A stretch of 64,000 nt of DNA from Patellaria atrata CBS 101060 (taxonomy: Eukaryota), in contig MU006119.1 in assembly GCA_010093705.1 (NCBI GenBank), forward strand, positions 73,002 through 137,001, in the 5' to 3' direction. The translations under genes and the position numbers were made by a program. Each line of letters opens with the position of its first letter. The first letter of the stretch is position 1. The notes under the pieces were generated by a model. The model saw nothing but the letters and a program-made list of their open reading frames with translations, had not been told where the DNA came from and made no database searches. Shown one piece after another: positions 554 to 42,449 of the stretch.

Positions 554-2858
554 CTAGAAGTTCATCATGTCTAGCATCCGCGTTAGCTAACAATCACTCT
601 TAGTATCAAAGTGAAAGGAGACCTCACCTCTGCCGAACAGCGCTCTCTTACTCCAATCCATGGCAAGCAGAATTCTCGTTCTCAAACTCACGCTCTGCGC
701 GAAATAAATACTTCTCCACAGGTATACCGCCAACAAGCCTCCCGAGAAGTTCATGCCCCCGAAATCAAACACTGCCGCGTTACCGATGTATGCCAAACTT
801 CCCAGGTGTTTGTACTCGAATGCCTTGTAGATGGCCTCATCCAAGTCTCCATAGTCCACCTGATTAGCTTGCATACCCGGCGCCGCCTGCGCCGCCTTAT
901 TGAACTTGCGGCCGAGGTAGAGACCCTGCTGATGCGCACGTTGAGCCGTCGCCGGTAGTGATGTCAGCTTCGAGTCGATCTGCCGCAGGAGTTCCAAAAG
1001 CTCGCCAAAATCCAGTGTTCCGGATCTGTCCTTGTCGTACTCCTGGAACAGCCTATCCAGACGTCGGAGATGGTCGGCCGCTTGAGGAAAGTGGACGCGG
1101 ACTCGTTTGGCTACTTTGCGCCAGTCGGAGAAGGAGATCTGCATTTCTTCCGGATTCTTGCCTTTCTCCCACGCGAGTGTGCGGAGGAAAGTGACGATGT
1201 GCTCGGAGACGTTATTTTGGACTGTGGAGCAATCACCGATGGCATAGACGTCGCCCAACGGCGCGCCAAGCAAGCGAAGATGAGTGTCGGTTTCAAGAGC
1301 ATGTTTGTTGTTCTGATTTTCCAGTTTTTGAGCTAGTATTTGGCAGAACTCTGTTTGGGCTTTGGGCCGTTTAGCTATGGAAGGGAATAAGTAGAGCATG
1401 GAAAGCCTTACAAACACCAGTGGACCAAAGACAAAACCCCATCGGGAGCTCTTTTGTAGTAATCTTCCCGTCTTCGCCCTTCTGACTAAAAAGAATCTTG
1501 TCGGCCTGGACTTCTTTAACGCGTGAGTTCGTAAGCACCTCGACTGATTCATGAGCGAAGCGTTCCTAAACATGTAAGCGTTGAACTTCACAAGTGATGG
1601 GAAAATGATAACTAGCCATACCTCTGCATACTTGGATAGAGCTTCATCATAGGTATTGAGGATATGGCCTCTACTCTGGATGACATGCACAGAGATCTCA
1701 TTGCGTAACAGTCTTGGATACATCTGTATAAGATCCTCGTTAAGCATGTCATACAGCTCCGCCGCAAACTCTACTCCGGTTGGTCCCCCACCACTAATGA
1801 CGAAGGAGAGAAGTCGTCGACGTTCCTCATCAGAGGTCGTGGGCAGACATGCCGTCTCCAAGTTCTCTATCACCTTATTCCGTATAAGCCGGGCGTCAGT
1901 GATATCCTTTAGGAAATGACAATGTTCAAGACCCTTGACTCCATGTGGATTGGTTACAGAGCCTAACGATGGTCAGAAACCGTAGTGGTAAAATGAGCTA
2001 CACCGACAACTCACCGACACCGATGACGAGCTTATCATATGGCAAATAGAAATGCTCCTTCACGCCGTCAGATCCGATAGAGGAGACCTCTACCAGTTTT
2101 GACGAGAAGTCAATGTCTTCCGCCTTAGCATTCAAGAATTGGCCCCGGACTCTAGCGATAATACGTCGGACAGGCTCTACAAGGGATCGGAGTTCTAGAG
2201 TACCGACCGTTGCCGATGGAAGCATTGGTGTAAAGAGGAAAGCATTCGAAGGAGACACCACAGTAACATGATAGTCTCCGGGATTCAGTTGCTTTAATAG
2301 GGCCACGCTACCCCAACCCGTCCCCAAGATGACCAACTTTGGTTTGTGCTTCTGATTGTAGTTTTCCGGTGTAGCATCGTCGTCGATAAGATGCTCAGCT
2401 ATAGGAAGGTTTTTTGGGCCACCTCTTCGCGGATTCAATGCTAATTCCGATATGGGTACGTCCGCACTGGCAGGATCTAATTTATACGTTGTGGCATCAT
2501 AGACGAAAAAGGCCAGCAGAAGGCCGCCTGACGTAAGCATAAACCCACCGAATAATGCAAGACTCCTGTATGCTATTCGAACAAGCCGCGAACGTTGCTT
2601 TGGATTAGGAAGCGTGGATGCCCCGCGGTAAGTGATTTTAGGTCTTATTGTATGCAATTGCGATTGGGAACAAGGTAAGACGAATGACGGCAACGAGGAG
2701 CGAGAATTGAATTGAAGGCGCGAGAAGTCTGAGAAAGGTCTGCGTTGTACTGAATGGAGATCATGGTGGAATAGCTGTCGAGCGCTCGATATCGGCTTAT
2801 GATTCCAGAGAGCAGCATCCGATCGAGTGGACGTGAGTCTGCCGCGCCGCAGTAGCAT
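554..2858 (-). CDS. Mitochondrial type II (alternative, external) NAD(P)H dehydrogenase with EF-hand, NDE-1/64 kDa type; 5 exons (2858-2015, 1962-1622, 1565-1412, 1359-628, 570-554)
   Basis: Rossmann motifs VILGTGWG and SGGGPTGVEFAAE, FLFTPMLPS, YAIGDC, LPATAQRAHQQG, YKHLGSLAYIG; EF-hand DKDRSGTLDFGEL; Arg-rich N-terminal presequence; four GT..AG introns restore one frame ending GRDMMNF*. Confidence 0.93.
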
Positions 2859-11744: not shown

Positions 11745-12327
11745 ATGCCTGTCTACGAGATCCACCACTGTATTGACATATCAGATTCTCAGAAGGACCA
11801 ACTAGCAGAAGCTATCACCAAGCTCCATAGCTCGCGTTTCACAACCCCATCGCTCTTTGTTAACGTTCGCTTTCACGACTCATCCTCAATACCGCATTAT
11901 GTAGCAGGAAAAAGGGTATGTACACCTACCTTTCGTACCAATTTTTATCCGTAGCCCACCAGCCGGTTCGGAATCGAAGCTCACATAAACTCACATACAG
12001 AAATCGTTCAACATCATAATTGTCCATCTCCGGCCCGGTCCAGACCGGCCTCGCTCCGCGCTTGACGCTCTCACAAACTTCCTCACAGATCTCTGGAACA
12101 CCATCATGTCGCCCTCCTCCACCTCCGAGAAGCTTCACACTACTTTCCTTCTCAACACCATCGCCGGCGGTCAGGAAGCGGGTTTTCTTCTTCCTGAAGC
12201 GGGAAATGATGTTGAGTGGGTGAAGGATAACTTGGCTGAATTTGAGAAAAGAGCGGGGGAAAAAGAGGAAGATATTGCAGACTTACTAGATGAAGTGAAA
12301 AAACGCAAGGTGTTTGGTCTCGGATGA
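11745..12327 (+). CDS. Tautomerase-superfamily protein (cis-CaaD/4-OT-like); 2 exons (11745-11915, 12001-12327)
   Basis: Starts M-P (catalytic Pro-1), QKDQLAEAITKLH...TPSLFVNVRF...YVAG, later EAGFLLPEAGND..W..DN..EF; intron GTATGT..CTCAC..CAG joins the frames. Confidence 0.85.
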
Positions 12328-12720
12328 GAAAGGAAGGGAGGTATGGCATCTACAAATATTGTGAGGAGGTATGAAGACGACTATCTAGGATACGAGGGGG
12401 ATGGAATGGGCTTGGATATTGAATAGGGGCCAAAGAGAAGATTATAATGATGTATACTAATACCAAGTGGTGTATTGACCATGGACTGGCTACTGAGAAC
12501 ATTTCTTCATCAGACATTACTCTCTTGAGTAGGAGGAACAGAATCATTATTGTTGAAGGTGTTGAAGTACTCACATATCGCACAAAGGAAAGAATGATTT
12601 ACAACTAGCATACATTGCAGGCGGCTTAGATCGGAAAAGTGCGGTATAGAGTTATTTCCCGAATAGCTTTACCGAAACTGGGGACATGGACATCAGTGTT
12701 TCCACAACTGCCAAACCAAC

Positions 12721-12858
12721 GGTCGGTTAGCTCAGTTGGTTAGAGCGTAAGTTAAATTGTCCATCCCACATATTATAACGTCTAACATATCACCAGGTGG
12801 TGCTAATATCAATTGATATGATACGCCAAGGTCGCGAGTTCGACCCTCGTACTGACCA
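12721..12858 (+). tRNA. tRNA-Ile(AAU) with two introns: 50-nt spliceosomal-type (12747-12796) and 14-nt canonical (12809-12822)
   Basis: Removing both gives a 74-nt cloverleaf: acceptor GGTCGGT/ACTGACC, D-arm GCTC/GAGC, anticodon stem TGGTG/CGCCA with AAT at 12805-12807, T-arm GCGAG-TTCGACC-CTCGT; T-runs downstream from 12864. Confidence 0.9.
12747..12796 (+). other. Spliceosomal-type (U2) intron inside a tRNA gene
   Basis: GTAAGT donor at 12747, CTAAC branch site 12782-12786, CAG acceptor 12794-12796; absent from the paralog at 13853-13940. Confidence 0.85.
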
Positions 12859-13852
12859 TTCACTTTTGCACTTTTATTTTTAACTTTAGGCGACTAAGTA
12901 TATTATAATGTTGTCGGCGCTCTACTATTTTGCTCTCTAGGTGTACCTATCAGAAATTTAGAGCTCACTAAGTATAGTTATATTTTTGAGATGCTATTTA
13001 TTCTAGCTTAGCTATAGGGAACACGGTCCCGTTAGAAACAAGGTAATTATAGCACCTGTCTTCTTTCTTATATGTTCACAAGTCTATCCCTTCCACTCAT
13101 GTAGACATTAACATCTGTAAACGACCATGTTCCATCTCTCCCCACCTAAGGAAGTATGCAGGATACCGACAGCGCTTAATCTAGGTTGAGGCAGAAGGAC
13201 CTTCAATCTTGTGAATGCACATGTAAATTCGAACTCTGGAAGGCCGCATCGCGAGATAGATACTGGCGAATAAGATACTGTAGGGATCCGAAATGCTCTT
13301 GTATGATGCTAACTCAAACCGAGTAGTTTGATGAACTATGCCTCTATGATCGTTAGGGAAACCTTTTTTTTAAGACATAATTGGCTTCCACTATAATTTG
13401 AAAGATAACATGAGTCAAATTGCTGTGATTTGAGTGACTTCTTGAATGACTATAGCTTAGAAACCCAGAAAACGTAAGTACCTTAACTGTATAAAAAAGT
13501 ACCCGGTATCTAGTCTAACTCATAGATGGAAATAATGTAAACTTGAAACGGATATTGAAGGACTGGAAAAAGAAGCTGGTAAGCAAATTATAAATAACTA
13601 CGATAGTGCTACCCGACCCGGGTTTCTTTATTACCTTAGTATATAGACTATTAAGGCGATGGACAAGCTTTCTAAGGAGTACTTTCAGATTCCGATAGCG
13701 TTATGATCGATCGATTATTAGGGTGAAAATTTATAATTTTCACTCTTACCTTATGTACTGATGAAAAGGGGTGTTTATACTTAAGAGTAAAAAGAAACTG
13801 AGAACAAAAAGTTAAGCACAAGAAAATGGGCAAAAAGAAAATTTGAGGATTA

Positions 13853-13940
13853 TGGTCAATACGAGGGTCGAACTCGCGACCTTGGCGTATCATATCTACT
13901 GATATTAGCACCACGCTCTAACCAACTGAGCTAATCGACC
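13853..13940 (-). tRNA. tRNA-Ile(AAU) with canonical 14-nt intron
   Basis: Reverse complement GGTCGATTAGCTCAGTTGGTTAGAGCGTGGTGCTAATA-tcagtagatatgat-ACGCCAAGGTCGCGAGTTCGACCCTCGTATTGACCA; intact A/B boxes; downstream T-runs. Confidence 0.96.
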
Positions 13941-14220
13941 GATGATTATAATAACTTAGCAAATCTAAATACTTAACGAGCGCAAAATATTATGCATTGC
14001 AGCCCCTTCAAACTACTAGCTAAGGCGCTAGTCTTGGAGCTATAAGGTAAGCTACCTTAGCTTGAGCTAAGGCGACCTTCAACATCCCTGCTCCAACCTC
14101 GAGCCTTGGCAAAAACTTTCTCGAGAGAACGATCTTGGACGATTGACGTGCAGGGAATAGTTACAGTATGTGCACGCAAAAGAGAGTCTCCAACTAAGTG
14201 ATCAGTTATCGGCGACCACT

Positions 14221-16685
14221 ATGGCCAGGAAGAAAAGATCATCTCGATCCGATATTTCTGCTACAAGTGCCGCCGAGTCATCATCGAGTCCTATGCCGCC
14301 CATAGTCACATCGAAAGCTTTAGACCCGCCTGTCTCTGGCAAGACATTCCAAAATACGACCAAGACACCACCTTCCACTTCGGCACTGATAATATGTCGC
14401 AACAAGTAGGTATTTATCGAGGCATGTCTTTGATATCATTACTCATTACCTGCACTCTTCGCACTTCTGTCAACTTGCGAACTCTATATTAACAGACTCC
14501 GGTTTCTAGACACTGGCGTTACATATCTTCGTTCCATGGACCTTGGCTACAACTACCACCGGAAGTTCTCGAAAGTCTTGCCCATAGCAATTACATATCC
14601 CCGCGACCACATCCCATAGACCCTGCTGTCTTCTATGACCTTGTCAAGATTCGTAAAGCTGTAGATGAAGCGACGAACCTGGCTGTACGCGCTACCAGTG
14701 GCCTTACCTCTGCAGCTCTAAGCAACTCCCTCAATGCAGGAAACGGCATACTTGGAGGTGCTGCAGCCCTGGGATTAGGGTATGGTGGAGGTGGGGGCAA
14801 TGCGAAATTGAGTAGAGAACGTAAACATAGGATGCGAGAACTGGCGACGCAAAAGTTATCCCAAGCATACCATCTCGATGAAATAGCTGCGAGTGTGGCA
14901 ACAATGCAGTCAGCGTCAACTTTAGAGGATGTTGCACAATATGTGCTAGAACGGAGTAGTGCAGATAGTGATGCGAAATACGTTCATTTTTTTCATGAAA
15001 AGATTCCAAGCAGGATGATGGCGCAGAATACACCCTTGGATCCACTGAACGAAATAATAGCTGAACGACCCACTGATGGAGCTCCGCTCAGGACAAGAGC
15101 CCTCACCAGAATGTTCAAGAACGATTATGCTAATGCCGCAAAAGACTTAACGGAGAGCCTGGCGGTTTGTCGATATTGGATGGCGCAGCACAAAGCAGGC
15201 AAGAATCAACTGGTACTTGCCAGGACAGTAAAGGGGGAAGTGGAGAAAAGGAGTTTCGGCAGAGACTGGAGGCAAGAAGTCAAGCTAGAGGAGGAAGATC
15301 AGCCAAGCAGTTTGGAGGCCCAATTATTGTTCCATCGGGCTGGTACGTATTTCGCCATCGCCTGTCAGCATATTCACTCTGCATTGGACGGATTGGAGAA
15401 GGCAGGAGGACCTGGACTGAATGGAGAGAATAATATCGTGTCTGGGGGTGACAGTCTGAAGACGCCACAATTAAGTGCCGAAGAGATAGAGGCTCATCAG
15501 AGACGGCTTGAAGAGCGAAAGATTGTCAAAACGAATGCAAAGAGGGCTATTCGAGATTACATTTCCTTCCTCTCTCATTTTGACTACACATCGGGCTTTC
15601 CGACCGAACTCGCGGAAGAATTCCTCCGCCGCGCAAATGTTGCCGCCAATGGTTCTGAAGAGACTCATCATATCTCTTCGCCTGTGCTTGGATCTTCTTC
15701 TCAGTCAAATGGTAGTTTATCAGATGCATTAGTCCCACACAGGGAACACCACCAGGAAAGACGTTCTGCGCCCAACTGGGCACAACTTCCACCTCCGCAG
15801 ATATACCAGCTCTCTTCGCTTTTCTCACCGAACCCTCCCCCTAACCTACCACCTTATCCTTCAGACTCAACTACCTTATATAAAACTGCGCCACAGTCTC
15901 AGTCCAATTCGCCGTCTGCGACAACCATGTTTGCCGACCCTCATGAAGCGATCACATATCATCCTCTTTTGACAGATGCTTTACATTCTCTACTTTTGTG
16001 CCATGCGCTTCTGCAGACATCTCCCAAGGAACTTCTTCGCCACGCCCACAATGCAGCTCGCCTCGCTCGGGTTTGTGACGGTTACCCAATTTTCCTTGCC
16101 GCTCGGTCGCCTAGTCGTAGCGACTGGATGGAAGTACTTCGAAGAGCGCACAATTGGATCGGCTTGTCCCAATCGTGGGAACAATTGTGTAAGCCTGCTC
16201 CGTTACCAGGTCAGAAAGAAGGAGCGGAGAGGACTGAAACAGAAGAACAAAAGAGGGAAAGGATGAAACATGAAGCGATCCTTGAAGCTCTAGCTGATGA
16301 TCGTGTTGTGGATGAAGAGAGTTTCCAGAAGGCTGTAAGAGCTAGAGAGAGAAGAGCAATGGAAGATGAAGAAGAAAGTAGAAACGCTAGCAGAAGTCCT
16401 AGGACTGACTCAGCCTCCCTTAACGGTAATCATACCAATGGAAACAGTAGTCCAGCAGATAGAGATCCGCCGCGAAGATGGGCTCAGGAAGATGGGAAAG
16501 AGTACCCAATATCTACAGAACGAGCGGAAGCGATTGCAAGATGGGTTAAGGAAGCGCCTTTGGTCATGGAAGGCGTCAAGAGAAAGGGTAAGAAAGGTGT
16601 GAAGGGAAAGAAGAAAGCAGGTTTAGAAGAAAGTGTAGACACATTCAGCGTTGAAGACCTAGGAGAAGTAGAGGAGCTTGATTAG
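14221..16685 (+). CDS. Conserved fungal hypothetical protein with TPR-like helices; 2 exons (14221-14405, 14510-16685)
   Basis: Intron 14406-14509 joins ICRNK|HWRYISSFHGPWLQLPPE to a long ORF; TPR-like segment LRTRALTRMFKNDYANAAKDL. Confidence 0.85.
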
Positions 16686-18884: not shown

Positions 18885-19735
18885 AATTGTAGGTTTTCGC
18901 CGTTTCTTTGCAAATATCGATGAGATGTCCCATGGCTATGATGACTGGGACCTCGGTCCCAGCAGATACTTGGTAGAGCAGATTATCAGGTCATACGTAC
19001 ACCAACTTATGCTTGTTCTGCGTTTTCGAGGGACTAACACCTCGTTAACCGCTCAACGTAACTTGTGTTACGCAAGTAGATTCTATATCTGTGGCCTCTA
19101 AAAGGGAAGTCTGAGCCACATCCTTCGAATTTTTACCTTAGTTTCCAAATTCCTCGCAAGTAGTGCTGACGATTAACTTTGATCTAGAAGGATTACTCCG
19201 GGAGACTACCTACGTCTGCTTGTTTCTAGGTTCGGAACTATCCAGTCGAACTTGATCTTCTTCACTTTCTCGGTGTATTCTCCTTTGTACCGGCCGCGCC
19301 ATCAAAGACCTTTGCAATTGTTAGGGGATATCATCTACTTTGAATACTGCGATAACCTGAGTCCTGTATGCTCTGATTTCTGTCCGTCTGCGATTCCCGT
19401 CCTTCTCGGCTTCAGGGCCGGGATCATCTTGTGTGTCGGATGTGTAGCACCCTAGCGAAATTAATTGAAACATGGCTCGAGCATCCAGTTCAAGGCCTCA
19501 AAGGCTAATTCGTACATGTTCTATGGGATTTCCGTGGGATACATGCTTCAATTCTAAGTCTGATCAATACTACATTTGAGTTATGAACATATTGAGTTAG
19601 TTATCGGCAAGGACGTTATATAATCAAGTACAACCTTTTTTTTCCAAGTATCCATGAGGACTATATGGAGGCTCTTGGCGCAGGACTGTATTTTTTGTAA
19701 ACGTCTCGAGAAAGACGTCCGTATCTTCGCCCTTT

Positions 19736-19835
19736 NNNNNNNNNNNNNNNNNNNNNNNNNNNNNNNNNNNNNNNNNNNNNNNNNNNNNNNNNNNNNNNNN
19801 NNNNNNNNNNNNNNNNNNNNNNNNNNNNNNNNNNN
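19736..19835. other. Assembly gap (100 N)
   Basis: Run of N. Confidence 1.
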
Positions 19836-28867: not shown

Positions 28868-30042
28868 TTACAAGAAATACTCCGTCTGTACGTCTTTTCC
28901 TTGCTGTTGCTGTTCCGCCCTATGTACGTCGTTCTCGGGTGCTGCTTCAAAAACGTTGAAATATCTTTCACCCTTTTCACCAACTTCAAGTACGGACGCC
29001 ATATTACCGCAGCGATAGCAGTAATTCGGAGCACTCCAGACAGTAGATAGTTTACCATCGAAAAGTTCCTGGTAGCCTTCTTGACATAACTGATGTGCCC
29101 GTAATATGTGTGACATGCTATTCACTCCCAAGAACTTCTGGACAACCTGGCTCCCAAAGGTATACCCTGCACCACGAGGGGAAAGAGAGAATTCATCTCT
29201 TTCAGCATCAGGATCAGACCATACAAGATCCGCCATCGGCCCTTCGTGCGGGATTTCCCGGAACCTATCGATGATCTTGATTTGATCGATTGAATGTATG
29301 GATGGACTTAACCCACCATGAACGCAGAAAACATCATTATTAATGACGACAGAGAGTGTGAGGAAGTCGAACATGTCGGTGAAGTAGTGCCAAACGTTCG
29401 CATTCCCATACTTGCGAGAGCATTCAGTGTAGAATCCGTAAGACTGCGTGACACCCCTTGATTCGTGGTTGCCGCGAATCAGATGTACGCGGTGGGGATA
29501 GCGCAGCTTCAGACAGACAAGAAGAGATATAGTTTCGACGCTAAAAAGGCCACGATCGACATAATCGCCTACGAGTGGAGCATCCGTCAGCTAGCTGTTC
29601 GCCCCTCCGCACAATGTCTAATAAAGGTAGGATATTTAAACGGTAGGAGAGAATTGGGCGTAAGTCCCAGTAGCGGACATTCAGCGGTAATTAACACCAC
29701 AGGGTCGTGGGAAAGTATAGAGCCATACCTAGAAAGAGGTAGTTTGTATCAGGACACCACCCTCCTATTCTGAATATTTCTATCATATCGAAGAATTGAC
29801 CGTGAATGTCACCGACGACTGTTACTGGTGCTGATATGTGAACGACATTGCTCTCTTTCATAAGCAACTCTTTGGTTTTGGCGCATATTGCCTCGATGAC
29901 GGAATCTGCAAGTAACTCCTTGTTATAGAGGCGTGAAATACACTCATCGAGATCGACAGTAGCTATGAATGGCAGAGCGATTAGTTCTACAGCCCATTAA
30001 CATGCTGATTAGGTGAAATTCAATACCTGGGAGACCTGGCAT
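28868..30042 (-). CDS. PPG1: PP2A-related Ser/Thr protein phosphatase Ppg1; 3 exons (30042-30027, 29962-29729, 29568-28868)
   Basis: GDIHGQ, GDYVDRG, RGNHE, HGGLSP, IDQIKIIDRFREIPHEG, SAPNYCYRCGN, C-terminal EYFL. Confidence 0.92.
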
Positions 30043-34195: not shown

Positions 34196-36759
34196 TCATC
34201 TCTCTTTCATTAACATGACTTTCTCGCCCTCGTCGGTTTCACTCCCTTCCCCCTCGGAGTCATCTTCCGTAGTCTCTTCATCTGTTTCTTCCTCGGTCTC
34301 GCCTTCCTCACTATCACTCTCGTCCAACCAGTCATTTAGGGCCTTTTGCTTGTGTCCATTTGTATTGCTCCCTCCCACTACGTTGTTACTTAATGTCTTT
34401 TCGCTCTCCATCACTTCCAGCTTTTCACTTGCCGAGACTTCTCTCTTTTCGCCGTAATTGTTATCGAACCCCTCTTCTCTCAGTCCCGGATTTGGCTCTT
34501 CGCTTTCTTTCACCCAATCTGGTAGCTTCTCGTAACCACGTAAACCCCCAATCCCTCCTTCTTCGCCAACTATCAGGCTGGAGGATCCCAGCAAAAGATC
34601 CCGTCTCGTTTCAGAGGGGCTAGGGGCTTGTGGGACTGGCTTGGGCGCAAGAAGAACCAAGGAAGCAAGTTGAGTAGATGATGGCACAGCGAGAAGGGAT
34701 CGATAAAGACGAGCACGATCCCGCAAATCGTAAGATGTATCGTACCGACTCAACAGTTGGATATATCGCCATATGACAACAATTGGATGCTCTGGGCCCT
34801 TGAGGCTGTCTTCCGCGCTTCTATCAGGTTCATATTTGTTCACTGCGAAGGTTGATTCTCGGAGTCTGTCTTCGTCATCATTTGGTGCCAGAACGGTGGA
34901 GGTTTTAACCTGTGCAGATTGCTCAAAACTTGAAGCTGTCGGCTGCGTGAGGTTCAGATAATGCACGTAGACCTTAGCTGCTAGAAGAACGATTTGCAGT
35001 TTAGCAACTTCAGCTTCGTCTACAAAACCTTTCACAAGAATGCGAAGTACATCGGCTGCAATGTTATTTTCCGGATCAATACCCGCAAACTCACCGACAA
35101 GCCATATGATACTGGCGCGTGCGTACGGGTTAGTCAGTGTGTCAAGGTTCTTCGCCAGCCTAATGACAATGGACTGGTGTGTTGCAGGATCTCGCTGGAT
35201 GAGATGCCGTACAACTTCCAATGACTCCGCTACCAGATGGCCGTCCGGACTATGGATATGTGATAGGAGAAGTCGCAGACACCGTGAGCTGGTCGACCCG
35301 TCACTATTTTGTGCGCATCGACCAACGGCTCGAACGGCCTCACGAACCAATAGCGTATCGTGACCACGCGACAGATGGTCCAATTCACTAAGAATTAGGC
35401 CTTGTAGTGGAGATGTACATAGTGGATATATCAAGGTTAGTAACTCGAGTTTTAGTTGCCAGATGTGTGGAGCATCAGTGCTGCGTACGAGGAAGTGGGT
35501 CGCGTAAGGAACAAATGCTTTGGGTCTGAGAAGGCATACTTGGATGATGTTGTGGAGAGCTATGTACTGGATATCCGAGGCAGAGCGAAGTAGCGCGATT
35601 AAGGGACCAATAGCTTGGTCCACGTGAGAATCGGTTCCGAGATATAGGTAGGTTCGTGTTACAGCAAGGACTACGGCCGAGTTTCTGGATTGAAGAAGCG
35701 AAGCAGCAGACTCCAGTAAAAGCGAAAGATCTGGATCTAGAATTATTTCATCGTAAAAAGCGTCCTTATTACTCGTATTTTCTTCAGACCCAGATGATGA
35801 GCCGTCATAGAATCCTTTAGTATTCGTGCTGGTTCCTCGCTTGTCTATGAGCCTTTTGACCCTCCGTTTCCGCCGTGGAAAGCATCTTCGTGCATAATTG
35901 CCCATAAGGCGTAGTGTATCGAGCTGGCTCCACTCATCCATATCCAGAAGTTTACGTAACAAACTTCTATAATGCGGGTGTATGAGATCGAGGCGGTCAG
36001 GACAAACTTCGAGGAAGGCAGACACAGCTGCACCAGCCACAAAATATTGCTTATCCCCCAACAGCGCCGCTAAGTACTCAATCATTTGCGGCTCAGTCCC
36101 TGGGTCCAGCCTGTAGCACTTTAGTATCGCGAGAGCCGCCGCTTTTCGTACATATGGGCTCATGTCCCCAACACCCCGCTTGATCCCGAGGCTCACAATT
36201 TGGGAGATCACGGGTACACGGATTCCAGACATGACCCGTAATGCGAGAGCGCGTAGTTGTGGATTCTGGTCCGTAAGAGATTTTTGGATACTGTTGATGG
36301 ACAGAAGGGCCGTATCGGGGGAGGATTCGGCATGCTGGAGGAGGTAGGCGTAAACGAGCTTCTTGATTTCAAGGGAGGGCGAGGCAATATTCTTGATGAG
36401 GTGTGTGAAGAGGCTGTGAGTGGGTTCCTGGCGGTATGACATCTAATAGAGCTGTTGTGAGTGCTGCGTTCGTACCCCATTGTAGAATGGAAAGTTAGCA
36501 ATAACTTCGTACCGCTATCACTCGTCTGAGGCCTTCAAGAACATCTCGTTCAGAGCGACTGTCCAATAGCTTCTTGAGATGTACTGTAGACATTCCCCGT
36601 GTCGCAGATCTACGAGCAGCGGTGGCATCACGGGCTGCTTCAAGAGTTAGGTCCCGAGCTGCAATTAGCGGATGCTGTTAGTGACTGGGAGTTAAAACCA
36701 AGATTTTCGAAATCCGTACCTGTTTCCAGCATACTCGAGATTCTAGATATTGACTCCAT
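34196..36759 (-). CDS. APL6: AP-3 adaptor complex beta subunit; 3 exons (36759-36720, 36658-36513, 36442-34196)
   Basis: Adaptin N domain: EIKKLVYAYL...DTALLSINSIQKSL.D.NPQLRALALRVMSGIRVP, DMSPYVRKAAALAI.KCY.LD, DMDEW.Q, RYDTSYDLRDRAR. Confidence 0.93.
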
Positions 36760-37268: not shown

Positions 37269-39147
37269 ACGTGGTTTATAAGCGAGCGGCGTATATAAGC
37301 GAGCGGCGTATATAAGCGAGCGGCGCACTTTTCCACGCATTATAACTTTTTCTTCTATAATAACGCATTTCTCCATAACCAACAATACCTACGCAGTTAA
37401 ACGAAAGTCAAATTGTCCTTGCCATCCAAGCTCTCCAACGCAATAAAAAACTCAGCCGTCGGAAAGCCGCAACGATCTACAACGTCTCCGAAACTACCCT
37501 CCGCGCGAGAACAAACGGCCGAACTCCCAAGCGCGACTGTCGCCCTAATTCTCAAAAGTTGACAGAAACCGAAGAAGAGGTGGTCGTCCAATATATTCTG
37601 GACCTAGATGCGCGAGGCTTTCCGTCCCGGCTGGCTAATGTGGAAGAGATGGCCAATCTGCTCCTCGCGGAGCGCGTCGCGGGACGCGTCGGGAAGCATT
37701 AGGCGGAGAACTTCGTCAAGCGACGACTAGAGCTGAAAACGCGTTTTTCTCGTGCCTACGACTTCCAGAGAGCCCTTTGCGAAGATCCGGACGCGATAAA
37801 CGCGTGGTTCCGTCTGGTAGCCAACATGCGCGCGAAATACGCGATCCAAGATGCCGATCTTTACAACTTCGACGAAATAGGCTTCATGATGGGCGTCATC
37901 TGCGGCGGCATGGTTGTCACGCGTGCCGACAGGCGTGGTAGAGGCAAACAACTTCAGCCTGGCAATCGCGAATGGGCCACGGCAATCGAGTGTGTAAGCA
38001 GCGACGGTTTGTGCTACCTCCTTTCTTGATTGTGCAAGGCGTCAACCACCTCGCATCCTGGTACACCGAATGCGGTCTCCCGCTTTCCTGGGTTATCAAG
38101 ACCTCGCCAAACGGCTGGACGGATAAAGAGACGGCTATGGACTGGATTCAGCATTTCCACTAGTATATAGATGCCCGGCGGAAAGATATCTATCGGATAA
38201 TTGTTCTTGACGGTCATGCAAGCCATCTATCGGCTTAGTTCGAGGAATTCTATAAAGAAAAGAATATTATCACCGTTTATCTACTTATATATTCTTCGCA
38301 CCTCATTTAACCTTTAAATGTTAGATATTTCAACGTGCTAAAGCGGATATATAGCTAGAAACTCGAAACCTTTATTAAAGTCTATATTAACTATATTATT
38401 AAAATTAAGTTCTTTATCGCGTTTAAAGACACTTATATTAATATTATAATAATTAAAAATATTTAAATAAGCTTTTTTAATATTAGTTTAATTTTTTATA
38501 ATCTTTAAACTATTATTTTAAAGTTTAATATAAAACTATAAATATTAATATTAATTAAATCTTTTTTCTTTATTATTAATTTATAAGTCTTTTAAATATT
38601 AAATAATTTTAAAGAAACTATTTTATAATTTAAATATATTAAGAATTAAATAATTTAATATTAAGAAAATTCTTTAAATACTATTTTTTTAACTTTTAAA
38701 TAATTAATAAAGAATATAAAATTTATTATTTATAAAATAATATTTATATATAATAATATTTAAATATTTTAAAAGATTAATAAAATATTTATAAAATAAT
38801 AATAAACTAAAAATATATATATATAAATAAAAGAAATATTTAATATATAAAATATATAAAAATTAATTATTTAAAAAAAAAATTATTAAATAATAATTAA
38901 ATAAAAAGTTAAAAAAAAAGAATTTAATAAAAAAAGAATTATTATATTTATAATATTATAAAAGATATAAAAAGATTAAATATAATATATAAATTTATTA
39001 AAAGAATAAAGAAATATTTAAAGAAAAAAGTTTAATTAAATATAATTAATTTTTTTAAATTATAATTATATAATTAAATTTAAAAATTATAATAAAATAG
39101 AAAAATATATTATTTATTTATATATATCGCTCGTTTATAGACTATAT
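37269..39147 (+). mobile_element. Fot1/pogo-type Tc1-mariner DNA transposon, full length, inactivated
   Basis: TA|ACGT left end with three 17-bp TATAAGCGAGCGGCGTA repeats; degenerate right TIR ending ~39147 followed by TA; transposase start mutated to ATA at 37385; HTH motifs, YNFDEIGF, NGWTD, IVLDGHASH; internal TAG stops. Confidence 0.93.
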
Positions 39148-39579: not shown

Positions 39580-42449
39580 TATATATATATATATATATAA
39601 ATAATATATTTTTTTATATATTATAATTTTTTTTTTATAATAATATATTTTTTTATAATTAATAATATTTATATAATTAAATAAAAAATAAATTATTTTT
39701 ATTATTTAAATTTTTAAATATAATAAAAATTTTAATTATTAAAAAATTATAATAATTTATAATATTTTTAAAACTATTTTTTATATAAAAATTAATAGTT
39801 AAACTTTTAAATATAATTATTATTTTAATTTTAAAAAATTAATAAAAAAAATAATTATTTAATATATTTTAAATTTAAATATATAAAAATTTTCTTTTTA
39901 ATTAATTAATATAAAAGAGAAAATTAATTTACTTTCTATAAAATATATTAGAAAATATATTAAAAAATATTAAATAAAAAATTTTATTAAATAATAATTA
40001 AAATTAAAATATATTTTTTTTATATTTATAATTTTTAAAGAATTTTTTATAAAAATTTAAAAATAATAAATATATAATTTTATTTAATAATTAATATATA
40101 TATAAAATATTAATTATTTTATATTTTAATATATTAATTATAGTTTTTTATTTTATTAAATTATTAAAATTTTATTAAATAAATAAATAAATAAAAAAAG
40201 AATTATAAATTAAATATAATATTTTTTATTAATATATAAATATTAAATAAAAAGATATTTATTAAATAATTATTTTTAATAATTATATAAATTTTTTATT
40301 AATATATTTTATTATTTAAATAATTATTTTATTAATATTAATATATATTTTTATATAAAAATAAAAATAATAATATAATAAAAATTTATTATTTTTTAAA
40401 AAAATAATAAATTATTTTTTATTTTATAAACTTTTTAATTTAATTTAATTTTAAATATATAATAAATTATAAAAGTTTATAATATTTTTAAATTAATAAT
40501 TTAAAAGTGACTTTAAAAAATAATATAAAATAAATTAATAAAAATAAAAAATCTTTTTATATAAAAAAAAGATTTTTATAAATTAAATATTTAATTTAAA
40601 TTAATAAAACTTTTTATTTTAAATTATAAATTTATAAAAAATAGTAAAAACTTTATTTATTAAATATAATTAAAATTTATTATTAATATTTATTAATAAA
40701 AACTAAATTTTATATTTTATTATATAATAATTTAAATTAAAAATATAATAAAATTAAAAGTTTTAATTATAATATATTAAATATAAGAATTTTTATATAA
40801 TAAATATATAATTTTAATAAAATAAAATTTTAAATAAATATTATTATAATTATAAAAATAATTTTAAATTTAAATAATATTAAATAAATAAATATTATAA
40901 AATTATAAAATTATAAATAAATTATAATTATTAAAAAAATTAATTTATTAAATTATATTATTAAATTATATATTATTTTAATAGAAAAAATTTATTAAAT
41001 TAATTAATATATAAATTTATTAATTAATTAAATAATTTTCTTAAATATAAATAATTAAATAAATAAAATATTTTAATATTTATATTAAAAACTTTATATA
41101 ATAAATATATAATAAAAATTAAAGAAATAAAATTATAAATATTATATTTTATATAAAAATAGTTTTTAAATTTAATAAAAATAATTTCTTTTTAATAAAA
41201 TAAAAATAGAAAATATAAAATTAATAAAATTAATAAAATTATTATATAATAATAAATATTATTAATATATAATAAATATTATTAATATATAATAAATATT
41301 ATTAATAAATAATAAATATTATTAATATATAATAAATATTATTAATATATAATAAATATTATTAATATATAATAAATATTATTAATATATAATAAATATT
41401 ATTAATATATAATAAATATAAAATTTAAGATTATATTATTTATATATATTTAAATATAAAAAAAATTAATTAAATAAATTTTTAAATAAAATAATATTTA
41501 TTTTAATTAGATTTTTATATAAAATTATATATTAATATTAATAAAATAGTTATTTAAATAAAATAACTATTTAAATAATAAAATATATTAATTTAATTTA
41601 AAAAATTTTATAGAAAAAAAAATATTATTATTATTTATTTATTTTTATATTTTATTTAATCTTTAAATATTAAATATTTTAATATATTAAAATAAATATA
41701 TAATTAAGAATTTAAAATTTTTATTAATTATATTATTAAAATTAAATTTTTTATTATATTTAAAAATATTTATATTAATATTATAATATATAAAAATATT
41801 TTAATAAATTTTTTTAATAATAATTTAATATTTTATAATTTTTAAACTATTATTTTAAAATTTAATATAAAATTATAAATATTAATATTAACTAAATTTC
41901 TTCTCTTTATTATAAATTTATAAATTTTTTAAATATTAAATAATTTTAAAAAAGTTATTTTATAGTCTAAATATATTAAAAATTAGATAATTTAATATTA
42001 AAAAAATTATTTAAATATTATTTTCTTAATTATTAAATAATTAATAAAAAATATAAAATTTATTATAAATAAAATAATATTTTTATATAATAAAATTTAA
42101 ATATTTTAATAAATTAATAAAATATTTATAAAATAATAATAAATTAAAAATATATTTATATAAATAAAAAAAGTAGTTAATATATAAAAATTATTATTTA
42201 AAAAAAATTATTAAATAATAATTAAATAAAAAATTAAAGAAAAAAAATTTAATAAAAAAGAAATTATTATATTTTTAATATTATAAAAAGTATAAAAAGA
42301 TTAAATATAATATATAAATTTATTAGAAATATAAAGAAATATTTAAAAAAAAAAAAAAGTTTAATTAAATATAATTAATCTTTTTTAATTATAATAAAAT
42401 AGAAAAATATATTATTTATTTATATATATTATTTATTTATAAATTATAT
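39580..42449 (+). mobile_element. Second, fully RIP-degenerate copy of the same Fot1-like element, interrupted by a ~1.3 kb insertion (~40310-41585)
   Basis: 39600-40310 aligns by eye to 37320-38235 and 41585-42449 to 38220-39147, nearly all differences being C>T or G>A. Confidence 0.75.
41241..41420. repeat. 20-bp tandem repeat ATTAATATATAATAAATATT, 8 near-perfect units plus 1 degenerate
   Basis: Units at 41261, 41281 ... 41401. Confidence 0.92.

Follow-up and report, generated by a model that had tools for sequence, protein, structure and literature searches.

Introns at position 37/38 are the type of tRNA intron that is normally cut by the tRNA splicing endonuclease. In the excerpted text of a 2023 review (PMC10275265), eukaryotic tRNA introns are placed between N37 and N38, and the spliceosome is mentioned only as a contrast. 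The U6, U2, U5, U1 and rRNA genes are named as hosts of spliceosomal introns in the accessible part of a 2018 review (PMC5855946), where tRNA is not listed. The same part of that review describes the U6 RNA of Schizosaccharomyces pombe as made by RNA polymerase III (Pol III) and spliced by the spliceosome, and states that U6 introns keep their canonical signals while being otherwise unconserved, with several introns per gene in some species. Another kind of intron is marked by the bulge-helix-bulge, which consists of two 3-nt bulges with a 4-bp helix between them at the exon-intron junctions, according to excerpts of a 2014 review (PMC3978253). Searches of the main text of published articles, with few subscription journals among them, turned up no earlier account of a tRNA gene with a spliceosomal intron. 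In EMBO J in 1990, Kohrer, Vogel and Domdey reportedly described an engineered yeast pre-tRNA with an actin pre-mRNA intron that was spliced via the pre-mRNA pathway.

Here we describe a tRNA-Ile(AAU) gene, called copy A, from a window of 64 kb, by which we mean the whole stretch of DNA that was analysed. The gene is interrupted by a 50-nt insert in addition to an intron at 37/38. Judging from its sequence, we consider it probable (about 0.72) that copy A functions as a nuclear gene in a Dothideomycete fungus and combines an ordinary 37/38 intron with a U2-type (GT-AG) spliceosomal intron. The closest precedent is the Pol III-made, spliced U6 RNA of fission yeast. Like the U6 genes of S. pombe and other fungi, as described in the accessible part of PMC5855946, copy A has a short GT-AG intron with canonical 5', branch and 3' sites in a small structured non-coding RNA, and the likeness would extend to its presumed splicing and synthesis by Pol III. 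Unlike U6, the host RNA is a tRNA and not a component of the spliceosome, and the same 74-nt RNA also bears an endonuclease-type intron. Because a tRNA is not located at the catalytic centre of the spliceosome, the reverse-splicing origin of U6 introns is not directly applicable to it. The engineered actin-intron construct is said to be of the same kind in that copy A, too, would represent a Pol III pre-tRNA as a substrate of the spliceosome, but that construct was artificial, whereas the present case would be natural and conserved. To our knowledge, the hosts other than U6 (U1, U2, U5 and rRNA) are not Pol III products. The introns in these ascomycete genes are similar to the one reported here as spliceosomal introns in fungal non-coding RNA genes, including RNAs away from the active site (accessible part of PMC5855946), but their hosts are not tRNAs.

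There is also a resemblance to the tRNA introns of Archaea, Cyanidioschyzon merolae and nucleomorphs, which split the genes outside 37/38, including the D-arm and the T-arm, sometimes occur several at a time and are missed by standard scanners (excerpts of PMC3978253). While these bulge-helix-bulge introns are defined by structure and cut by the tRNA endonuclease according to the same excerpts, the conserved features at the present locus are the sequences recognised by U1 and U2. Copy A shares an intron at 37/38 with the canonical eukaryotic cases treated in the excerpts of PMC10275265 (Table 1). Unlike that intron, the 50-nt insert begins with GT, ends with AG and would block the fold of the mature domain which is measured by the endonuclease.

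Table 1. Features of copy A, its paralog (copy B), the AP-3 beta gene and four metagenome loci (L001 to L004). Positions refer to the window, or to the respective contig for the metagenome loci.
Feature	Position	Strand	Remarks
Exon 1 of tRNA-Ile(AAU) copy A	12721-12746	+	tRNA positions 1-25: acceptor 5' strand and whole D-arm, A box included
Spliceosomal-type intron of copy A	12747-12796	+	50 nt; from alignment with copy B and splice signals
5' splice site	12747-12752	+	GTAAGT, copy A intron
Branch box	12781-12786	+	TCTAAC, branch A 12785, then 11 nt to intron end
3' splice site	12794-12796	+	CAG, copy A intron
Exon 2 of copy A	12797-12808	+	G26, anticodon stem 5' strand and loop as far as A37; anticodon AAT
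Canonical tRNA intron at 37/38	12809-12822	+	14 nt, TCAATTGATATGAT; from ARAGORN after excision of the 50-nt insert; paralog intron in the same place
Exon 3 of copy A	12823-12858	+	A38 to discriminator base; T-arm (B box), acceptor 3' strand with C67
Oligo-T runs T4, T4, T5	12864-12881	+	begin 6 nt past copy A; Pol III terminator-like
Paralog copy B, tRNA-Ile(AAU)	13853-13940	-	canonical 14-nt intron only; A6:U67; flank words shared with L004
AP-3 beta ORF	34196-36442	-	100% identical to an NCBI protein of Patellaria atrata CBS 101060; next matches approx. 65% identity, mostly Dothideomycetes
L001 tRNA-Ile(AAU) gene	1404-1586	-	three introns: GT-AG at 26/27, canonical 8-nt at 37/38, GT-AG at 54/55
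L001 junction intron			48 nt; GTTAGT..ACTAAC..TAG
L002 intron-bearing copy	1489-1611	+	ends in the T-arm, runs into T7
L002 junction intron			52 nt; GTTAGT..ACTAAC..TAG
L003 junction intron			55 nt; GTAAGT..TCTAAC..CAG
L004 tRNA gene	683-823		intron-bearing; A6:U67
L004 junction intron			54 nt; GTGAGT..CCTAAC..TAG

Copy A and its paralog, copy B, are convergent and lie approximately 1 kb apart. The original prediction had proposed that copy A differs from copy B by one 50-nt insertion between C25 and G26 with a donor, a CTAAC branch site and a CAG acceptor, that GT-AG excision restores the cloverleaf, and that G6/C67 is specific for this copy, and all of these points withstood re-analysis. When copy A was aligned to copy B in reverse-complement orientation, a single gap of 50 columns appeared, and the inserted sequence was exactly as quoted. 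The only other differences within the gene were G6/C67 in copy A versus A6/T67 in copy B and two bases of the 14-nt canonical intron. The boundary of the insert slides by one base at the DNA level, as a G is present on both sides, and GT...AG is the single register which places the cut between C25 and G26; the three signals are all present at the positions given in Table 1. After removing the insert in silico, ARAGORN reported a tRNA-Ile(aat) with a 14-nt intron. We rejected the insert as a canonical intron of the tRNA splicing endonuclease, since it is located at 25/26, which is 12 nt upstream of the 37/38 site, and the latter is filled by the separate 14-nt intron.

The chance rate of the three anchored signals was determined in the 38 kb of the window with normal composition (1-38000, both strands), where they occurred in 2 of 377,974 windows of 48-55 nt, one of which is presumably the insert itself. 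The observation at 12747-12796 is confirmed as real and far exceeds chance. The insert occurs only once in the 64-kb window, and the best match elsewhere was 11 nt long (E 0.48). Introner-like elements, a multiplying intron family of Dothideomycetes, are known to occur in many near-identical copies per genome.

We scanned metagenomes for homologs with a pattern in which only the exon sequences of the D-arm end and the anticodon-arm start were fixed, allowing for any insert of 35-65 nt and naming no splice signal. This signal-blind scan yielded four contigs (L001 to L004), and the same pattern gave no match in prokaryote genomes or in viral contigs. All four inserts carry the same three signals, namely GT[AGT]AGT, an NCTAAC box whose A is followed by 10-12 nt, and YAG; together with copy A, this amounts to five junction introns with 10-12 bases after the branch A. 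If the second GT-AG insert of L001, located in the T-loop, is included, the 5' splice sites of all six inserts are GTRNGT-like at the exact boundary (GTAAGT in copy A, L003 and the L001 T-loop, GTGAGT in L004, GTTAGT in L001 and L002), and the 3' splice sites are CAG or TAG in each case. A strict intron motif matched exactly once per metagenome locus on both strands, and the match was the insert. Because a relaxed version of the motif also matched non-introns, such as 29660-29702 on the opposite strand of the PPG1 gene within PPG1 intron 2, only the strict and anchored motif tests were used.

The interiors of the introns (5' site to branch box) were as dissimilar as shuffled sequences in all ten pairs, indicating that only the features read by the spliceosome have been kept. 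The GT-AG cut is at 25/26 in copy A, L003 and L004 and at 26/27 in L001 and L002 (GAGCG/GTTAGT...TAG/TGGTG, slashes marking the boundaries), with both registers yielding an identical mature sequence. The intron boundaries follow the GT-AG dinucleotides, not the tRNA position. In copy A and L001 to L004, conserved signals are thus set against randomised interiors, and the one-base boundary shift tracks GT and AG. Since the four contigs from the signal-blind scan combine the three signals and unrelated interiors with exon changes that are exclusively compensatory (see below), the proposal that a genuine tRNA gene carries an intron of spliceosomal type gained support, and we regard removal of the copy A insert by the spliceosome as likely from the sequence data. 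The five loci would best be read as functional tRNA genes from Dothideomycete-like fungi which carry a conserved spliceosomal intron.

A run of N at about 19650-19750, which appears as X in an ORF translation, marks the underlying assembly as a draft with one or more gaps, so that the insert might be suspected to be an assembly or chimera artefact. We regard this as hardly credible, as the same architecture is present in four separately assembled public contigs, and two sequencing runs, which may be the source data, contain 97% of the sampled words of 12400-13200.

The metagenome loci differ in completeness and context. The additional T-loop insert of L001 has a length of 53 nt and lies at positions 54/55 (GCGAGT/GTAAGT...ATTAAT...TAG/TCGACC); its boundaries cannot slide and read GT and AG, and its only branch candidate is ATTAAT, 9 nt from the end. 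This intron splits the B box. The L001 gene is invisible to ARAGORN and Rfam, and a tRNA was detected by ARAGORN only if both inserts were removed. The 3' third of the L002 gene was absent from the 330 nt remaining before the contig end, and we interpret this copy as probably a truncated pseudogene whose splice signals are still perfect. An 87-residue BCP1 fragment beside the L004 gene has its best named matches in Dothideomycetes (92-96%). Directly upstream of the L003 tRNA gene, direct repeats of approximately 345 nt with 68.6% identity are present at 895-1433. Comparing the four loci with the window by blastn and tblastn revealed nothing in common outside of the tRNA. Because the canonical introns of L003 and L004 start alike and both genes have the pair G52:C62, they may come from one organism, and the five loci of this small comparative sample are therefore counted as perhaps 3-4 independent organisms rather than five.

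Where bulge-helix-bulge motifs are present, tRNA introns at non-canonical positions are on record, among them the D-arm (excerpts of PMC3978253). The inserts might accordingly be removed without the spliceosome, either by self-splicing or by the tRNA splicing endonuclease acting on such a motif, in the manner of archaea, red algae and nucleomorphs. In the minimum-energy folds of seven precursors or junction pieces (the L001 piece excluded), however, no common helix linked both boundaries, and none of the folds was notably better than those of shuffled sequences (z -1.8 to +1.5). The inserts of 48-55 nt are far below the size of group I or group II introns, which require a catalytic core of hundreds of nucleotides, and the Rfam matches in 12000-14500 and 1-38500 consisted of tRNA only, without any intron family. 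As this route would also leave the conserved GTAAGT, CTAAC and YAG sequences unexplained, we consider it very improbable.

The exons were compared in a cloverleaf alignment of copies A and B of the window with L003, L004 and L001, leaving out L002 because of its 3' truncation. All 105 stem cells of the five genes are standard pairs, and only four exon columns are variable, which form two compensatory pairs: 6:67 is AU, GC or CG, and 52:62 is AU or GC. Within exon 1, position 6 is the sole variable site across the homologs. In contrast to these exons, hardly any similarity is left among the loci in the GT-AG introns, in the canonical introns or in the flanks. Exon evolution is structure-preserving, and no substitution breaks the cloverleaf, so we rejected the interpretation of the five aligned genes as tRNA pseudogenes, with L002 standing outside of this count.

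Two old paralog lineages, one consisting of copy A and L003 and the other of copy B and L004, are suggested by short words shared in the flanks. In a test of 20 comparisons, copy A and L003 had CTTTTGCACT in common just 3' of the gene, which was reached by 3 of 500 shuffles, and copy B and L004, which have flank words in common on both sides of the gene, shared TTTCTTTTTGCC (1 of 500 shuffles) and TTTAGATTT (4 of 500 shuffles). The former two genes both contain G6:C67, the latter two A6:U67, and copy A and L003 additionally share GTAAGTT and TCTAACAT. This sharing of flank words favours old lineages over fresh insertions. Both members of the copy A/L003 lineage carry the GT-AG intron, which in the other lineage is present in L004, but not in copy B, while the canonical intron has been kept in both copy B and L004. 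This difference resembles an exact loss of the intron from copy B, or else a gain; a gene which lacks the GT-AG intron and retains the canonical one is the product expected from the cDNA of a half-processed precursor.

Because gene conversion takes place in tRNA gene families, well-conserved exons are by themselves no proof of the activity of each copy, and the presence of a copy without GT-AG intron in the window means that copy A may be dispensable. The intron-bearing copies may accordingly be dead or dying, if the D/anticodon junction were a hotspot of repeated intron re-insertion and the exons were refreshed by conversion from active paralogs. The features shared by copy A and L003 (flank words, G6:C67, GTAAGTT and TCTAACAT) rather suggest a single intron inherited through long divergence, although the unrelated interiors could also reflect different source introns, and separate events could lie behind the 1-nt offset and behind the additional T-loop intron of L001. 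The truncation of L002, whose signals are intact, and the intron-less copy 1 kb from copy A would fit decaying copies, but the branch-to-3' distance has been kept at 10-12 nt in all five junction introns, and the signals of the tRNA introns are stronger than those of all four verified mRNA introns of the window (see below). Considering further that the 64-kb window contains no other copy of the insert and that repeated precise insertion at a single site would itself be unprecedented, we judge death or decay of the intron-bearing copies to be improbable and retain a conserved spliceosomal intron in functional genes as the preferred reading.

The branch box (C)TCTAAC has its complement in the D-arm word GGTTAGAG, which directly precedes the intron (12737-12786 of the window and the introns of L003, L001 and L002), and the D-arm word GGTTAG recurs in the 5' site of L001 and L002, which reads GGTTAGT. 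These relations hint at either exon-intron pairing or a clue to the origin of the intron.

Copy A, L003 and L004 each have an intact A box and B box, and oligo-T begins 0-12 nt past each of the five complete genes. None of the six introns contains TTTT, and the copy A intron is free of any run of four or more T. Intact boxes, close oligo-T and the lack of TTTT add up to the layout of Pol III tRNA genes, in which the spacing from the A to the B box of copy A is lengthened by 64 nt. The second intron of L001, which splits the B box, is at odds with a standard Pol III promoter inside the gene. A search with a B-box consensus (up to three mismatches) failed to recover even the B box of copy A itself and thus says nothing on L001.

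This split B box of L001 is one of the observations that would be explained if the insert were spliced by the spliceosome on a transcript of RNA polymerase II (Pol II), from which the tRNA would then be cut out. Such a transcript could arise by read-through from the Tautomerase_3 gene (11745-12327, + strand), which is on the same strand as copy A and ends 394 nt upstream, or represent an unannotated non-coding RNA, and an intron-shaped element (GTAAGT..CTAAC..TAG, 13474-13525, + strand) follows downstream of copy A. We consider this route doubtful, because the boxes of copy A, L003 and L004 are intact and all five complete genes are followed by oligo-T as in ordinary Pol III tRNA genes; moreover, the neighbouring genes are different at every locus, so there is no conserved host gene. 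Provided that the spliceosome removes the insert, we lean modestly towards Pol III over Pol II. The 52-nt element itself lies between the two tRNA genes, with no ORF across it and no Rfam match, and may belong to a non-coding RNA from the strand of copy A that is spliced but unannotated.

We infer the splicing of the RNA, the polymerase and the order of steps as follows. Pol III would transcribe copy A from its intact A and B boxes and stop at the oligo-T just 3' of the gene. In the nucleus, the 5' site GUAAGU would be recognised through base pairing by U1 and the branch box UCUAAC (branch A 12785) by U2, and splicing by the spliceosome would connect C25 with G26. Because the L-shape measured by the tRNA splicing endonuclease could fold only after GT-AG excision, the canonical intron would be removed second, followed at last by end-trimming and CCA addition.

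For comparison with local mRNA splicing, we used four introns which are verified by homology or by the deposited protein, two in the gene for a PPG1-type phosphatase with Pezizomycotina relatives (64 and 160 nt) and two in the AP-3 beta gene (61 and 70 nt). The insert had been claimed to match local mRNA introns of 45-57 nt, and with the verified lengths this agreement turned out to be looser than stated. The verified 5' sites are GTATTG, GTATGG, GTACGG and GTACGA, and the branch sites, as read from the sequence by eye, lie 15-19 nt from the 3' end. The copy A intron is both shorter and nearer to the signal consensus than any of the four mRNA introns. In this small sample, strong signals might be expected for an intron that is spliced without the usual help of Pol II.

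The expectation that standard scanners miss this class of genes was borne out. ARAGORN detected neither unspliced copy A (in default mode) nor any other unspliced intron-bearing copy (none of the four metagenome genes), and Rfam missed both L001 and L002. The Rfam tRNA model assigned 38.3 bits to unspliced copy A by skipping 79 nt, compared to 50.7 bits for copy B. In gathering mode on 71 kb, copy A was not reported even though its score exceeds the family threshold of 29, because the speed filters drop split tRNAs. After excision of the inserts, ARAGORN detected a tRNA in four of the five intron-bearing loci, which are all four complete genes; L002 was not detected because the gene stops in the T-arm. 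The labels 'Ser(aga)' for L001 and 'Asp(atc)' for L004 result from placing the canonical intron elsewhere. Because all copies contain the anticodon loop CTAATA, they were all treated as Ile(AAT). As ARAGORN and Rfam miss the intron-bearing genes, tRNA annotation is incomplete in any genome carrying them.

If the preferred reading is true, copy A represents a natural, conserved tRNA which needs both splicing machineries, and tRNA joins the known substrates of the spliceosome. It would then join U6 as the second natural example in which the spliceosome processes an RNA probably transcribed by Pol III, and would provide a clean system for intron gain in RNAs far from the active centre of the spliceosome as well as a natural test of processing order. 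Beyond these loci, some fungi, at least among the Dothideomycetes, may contain a hidden class of tRNA genes that depend on the spliceosome, with GT-AG introns at the D/anticodon junction (in two registers) and in the T-loop which have long been kept, are removed before the canonical intron and in some cases destroy the B-box promoter; from the sequences at hand, we give this wider proposal an even chance. Such a class would couple tRNA supply to spliceosome activity, tRNA gene counts by standard scanners would be systematically too low in the respective genomes, and the loss of the B box would imply non-standard polymerase recruitment in some of the genes.

The distal part of the window (38000-64000) consists of a 26-kb block of extreme A+T content with a GC content of 2-24% per 2 kb. 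It starts just past a fragment of an HTH_psq transposase (37379-37702). The 420 nt sampled from this block (40000-40420) were almost purely A/T, and no tandem repeats were evident in them. The block may be centromere-like, or else a graveyard of repeat-mutated transposons.
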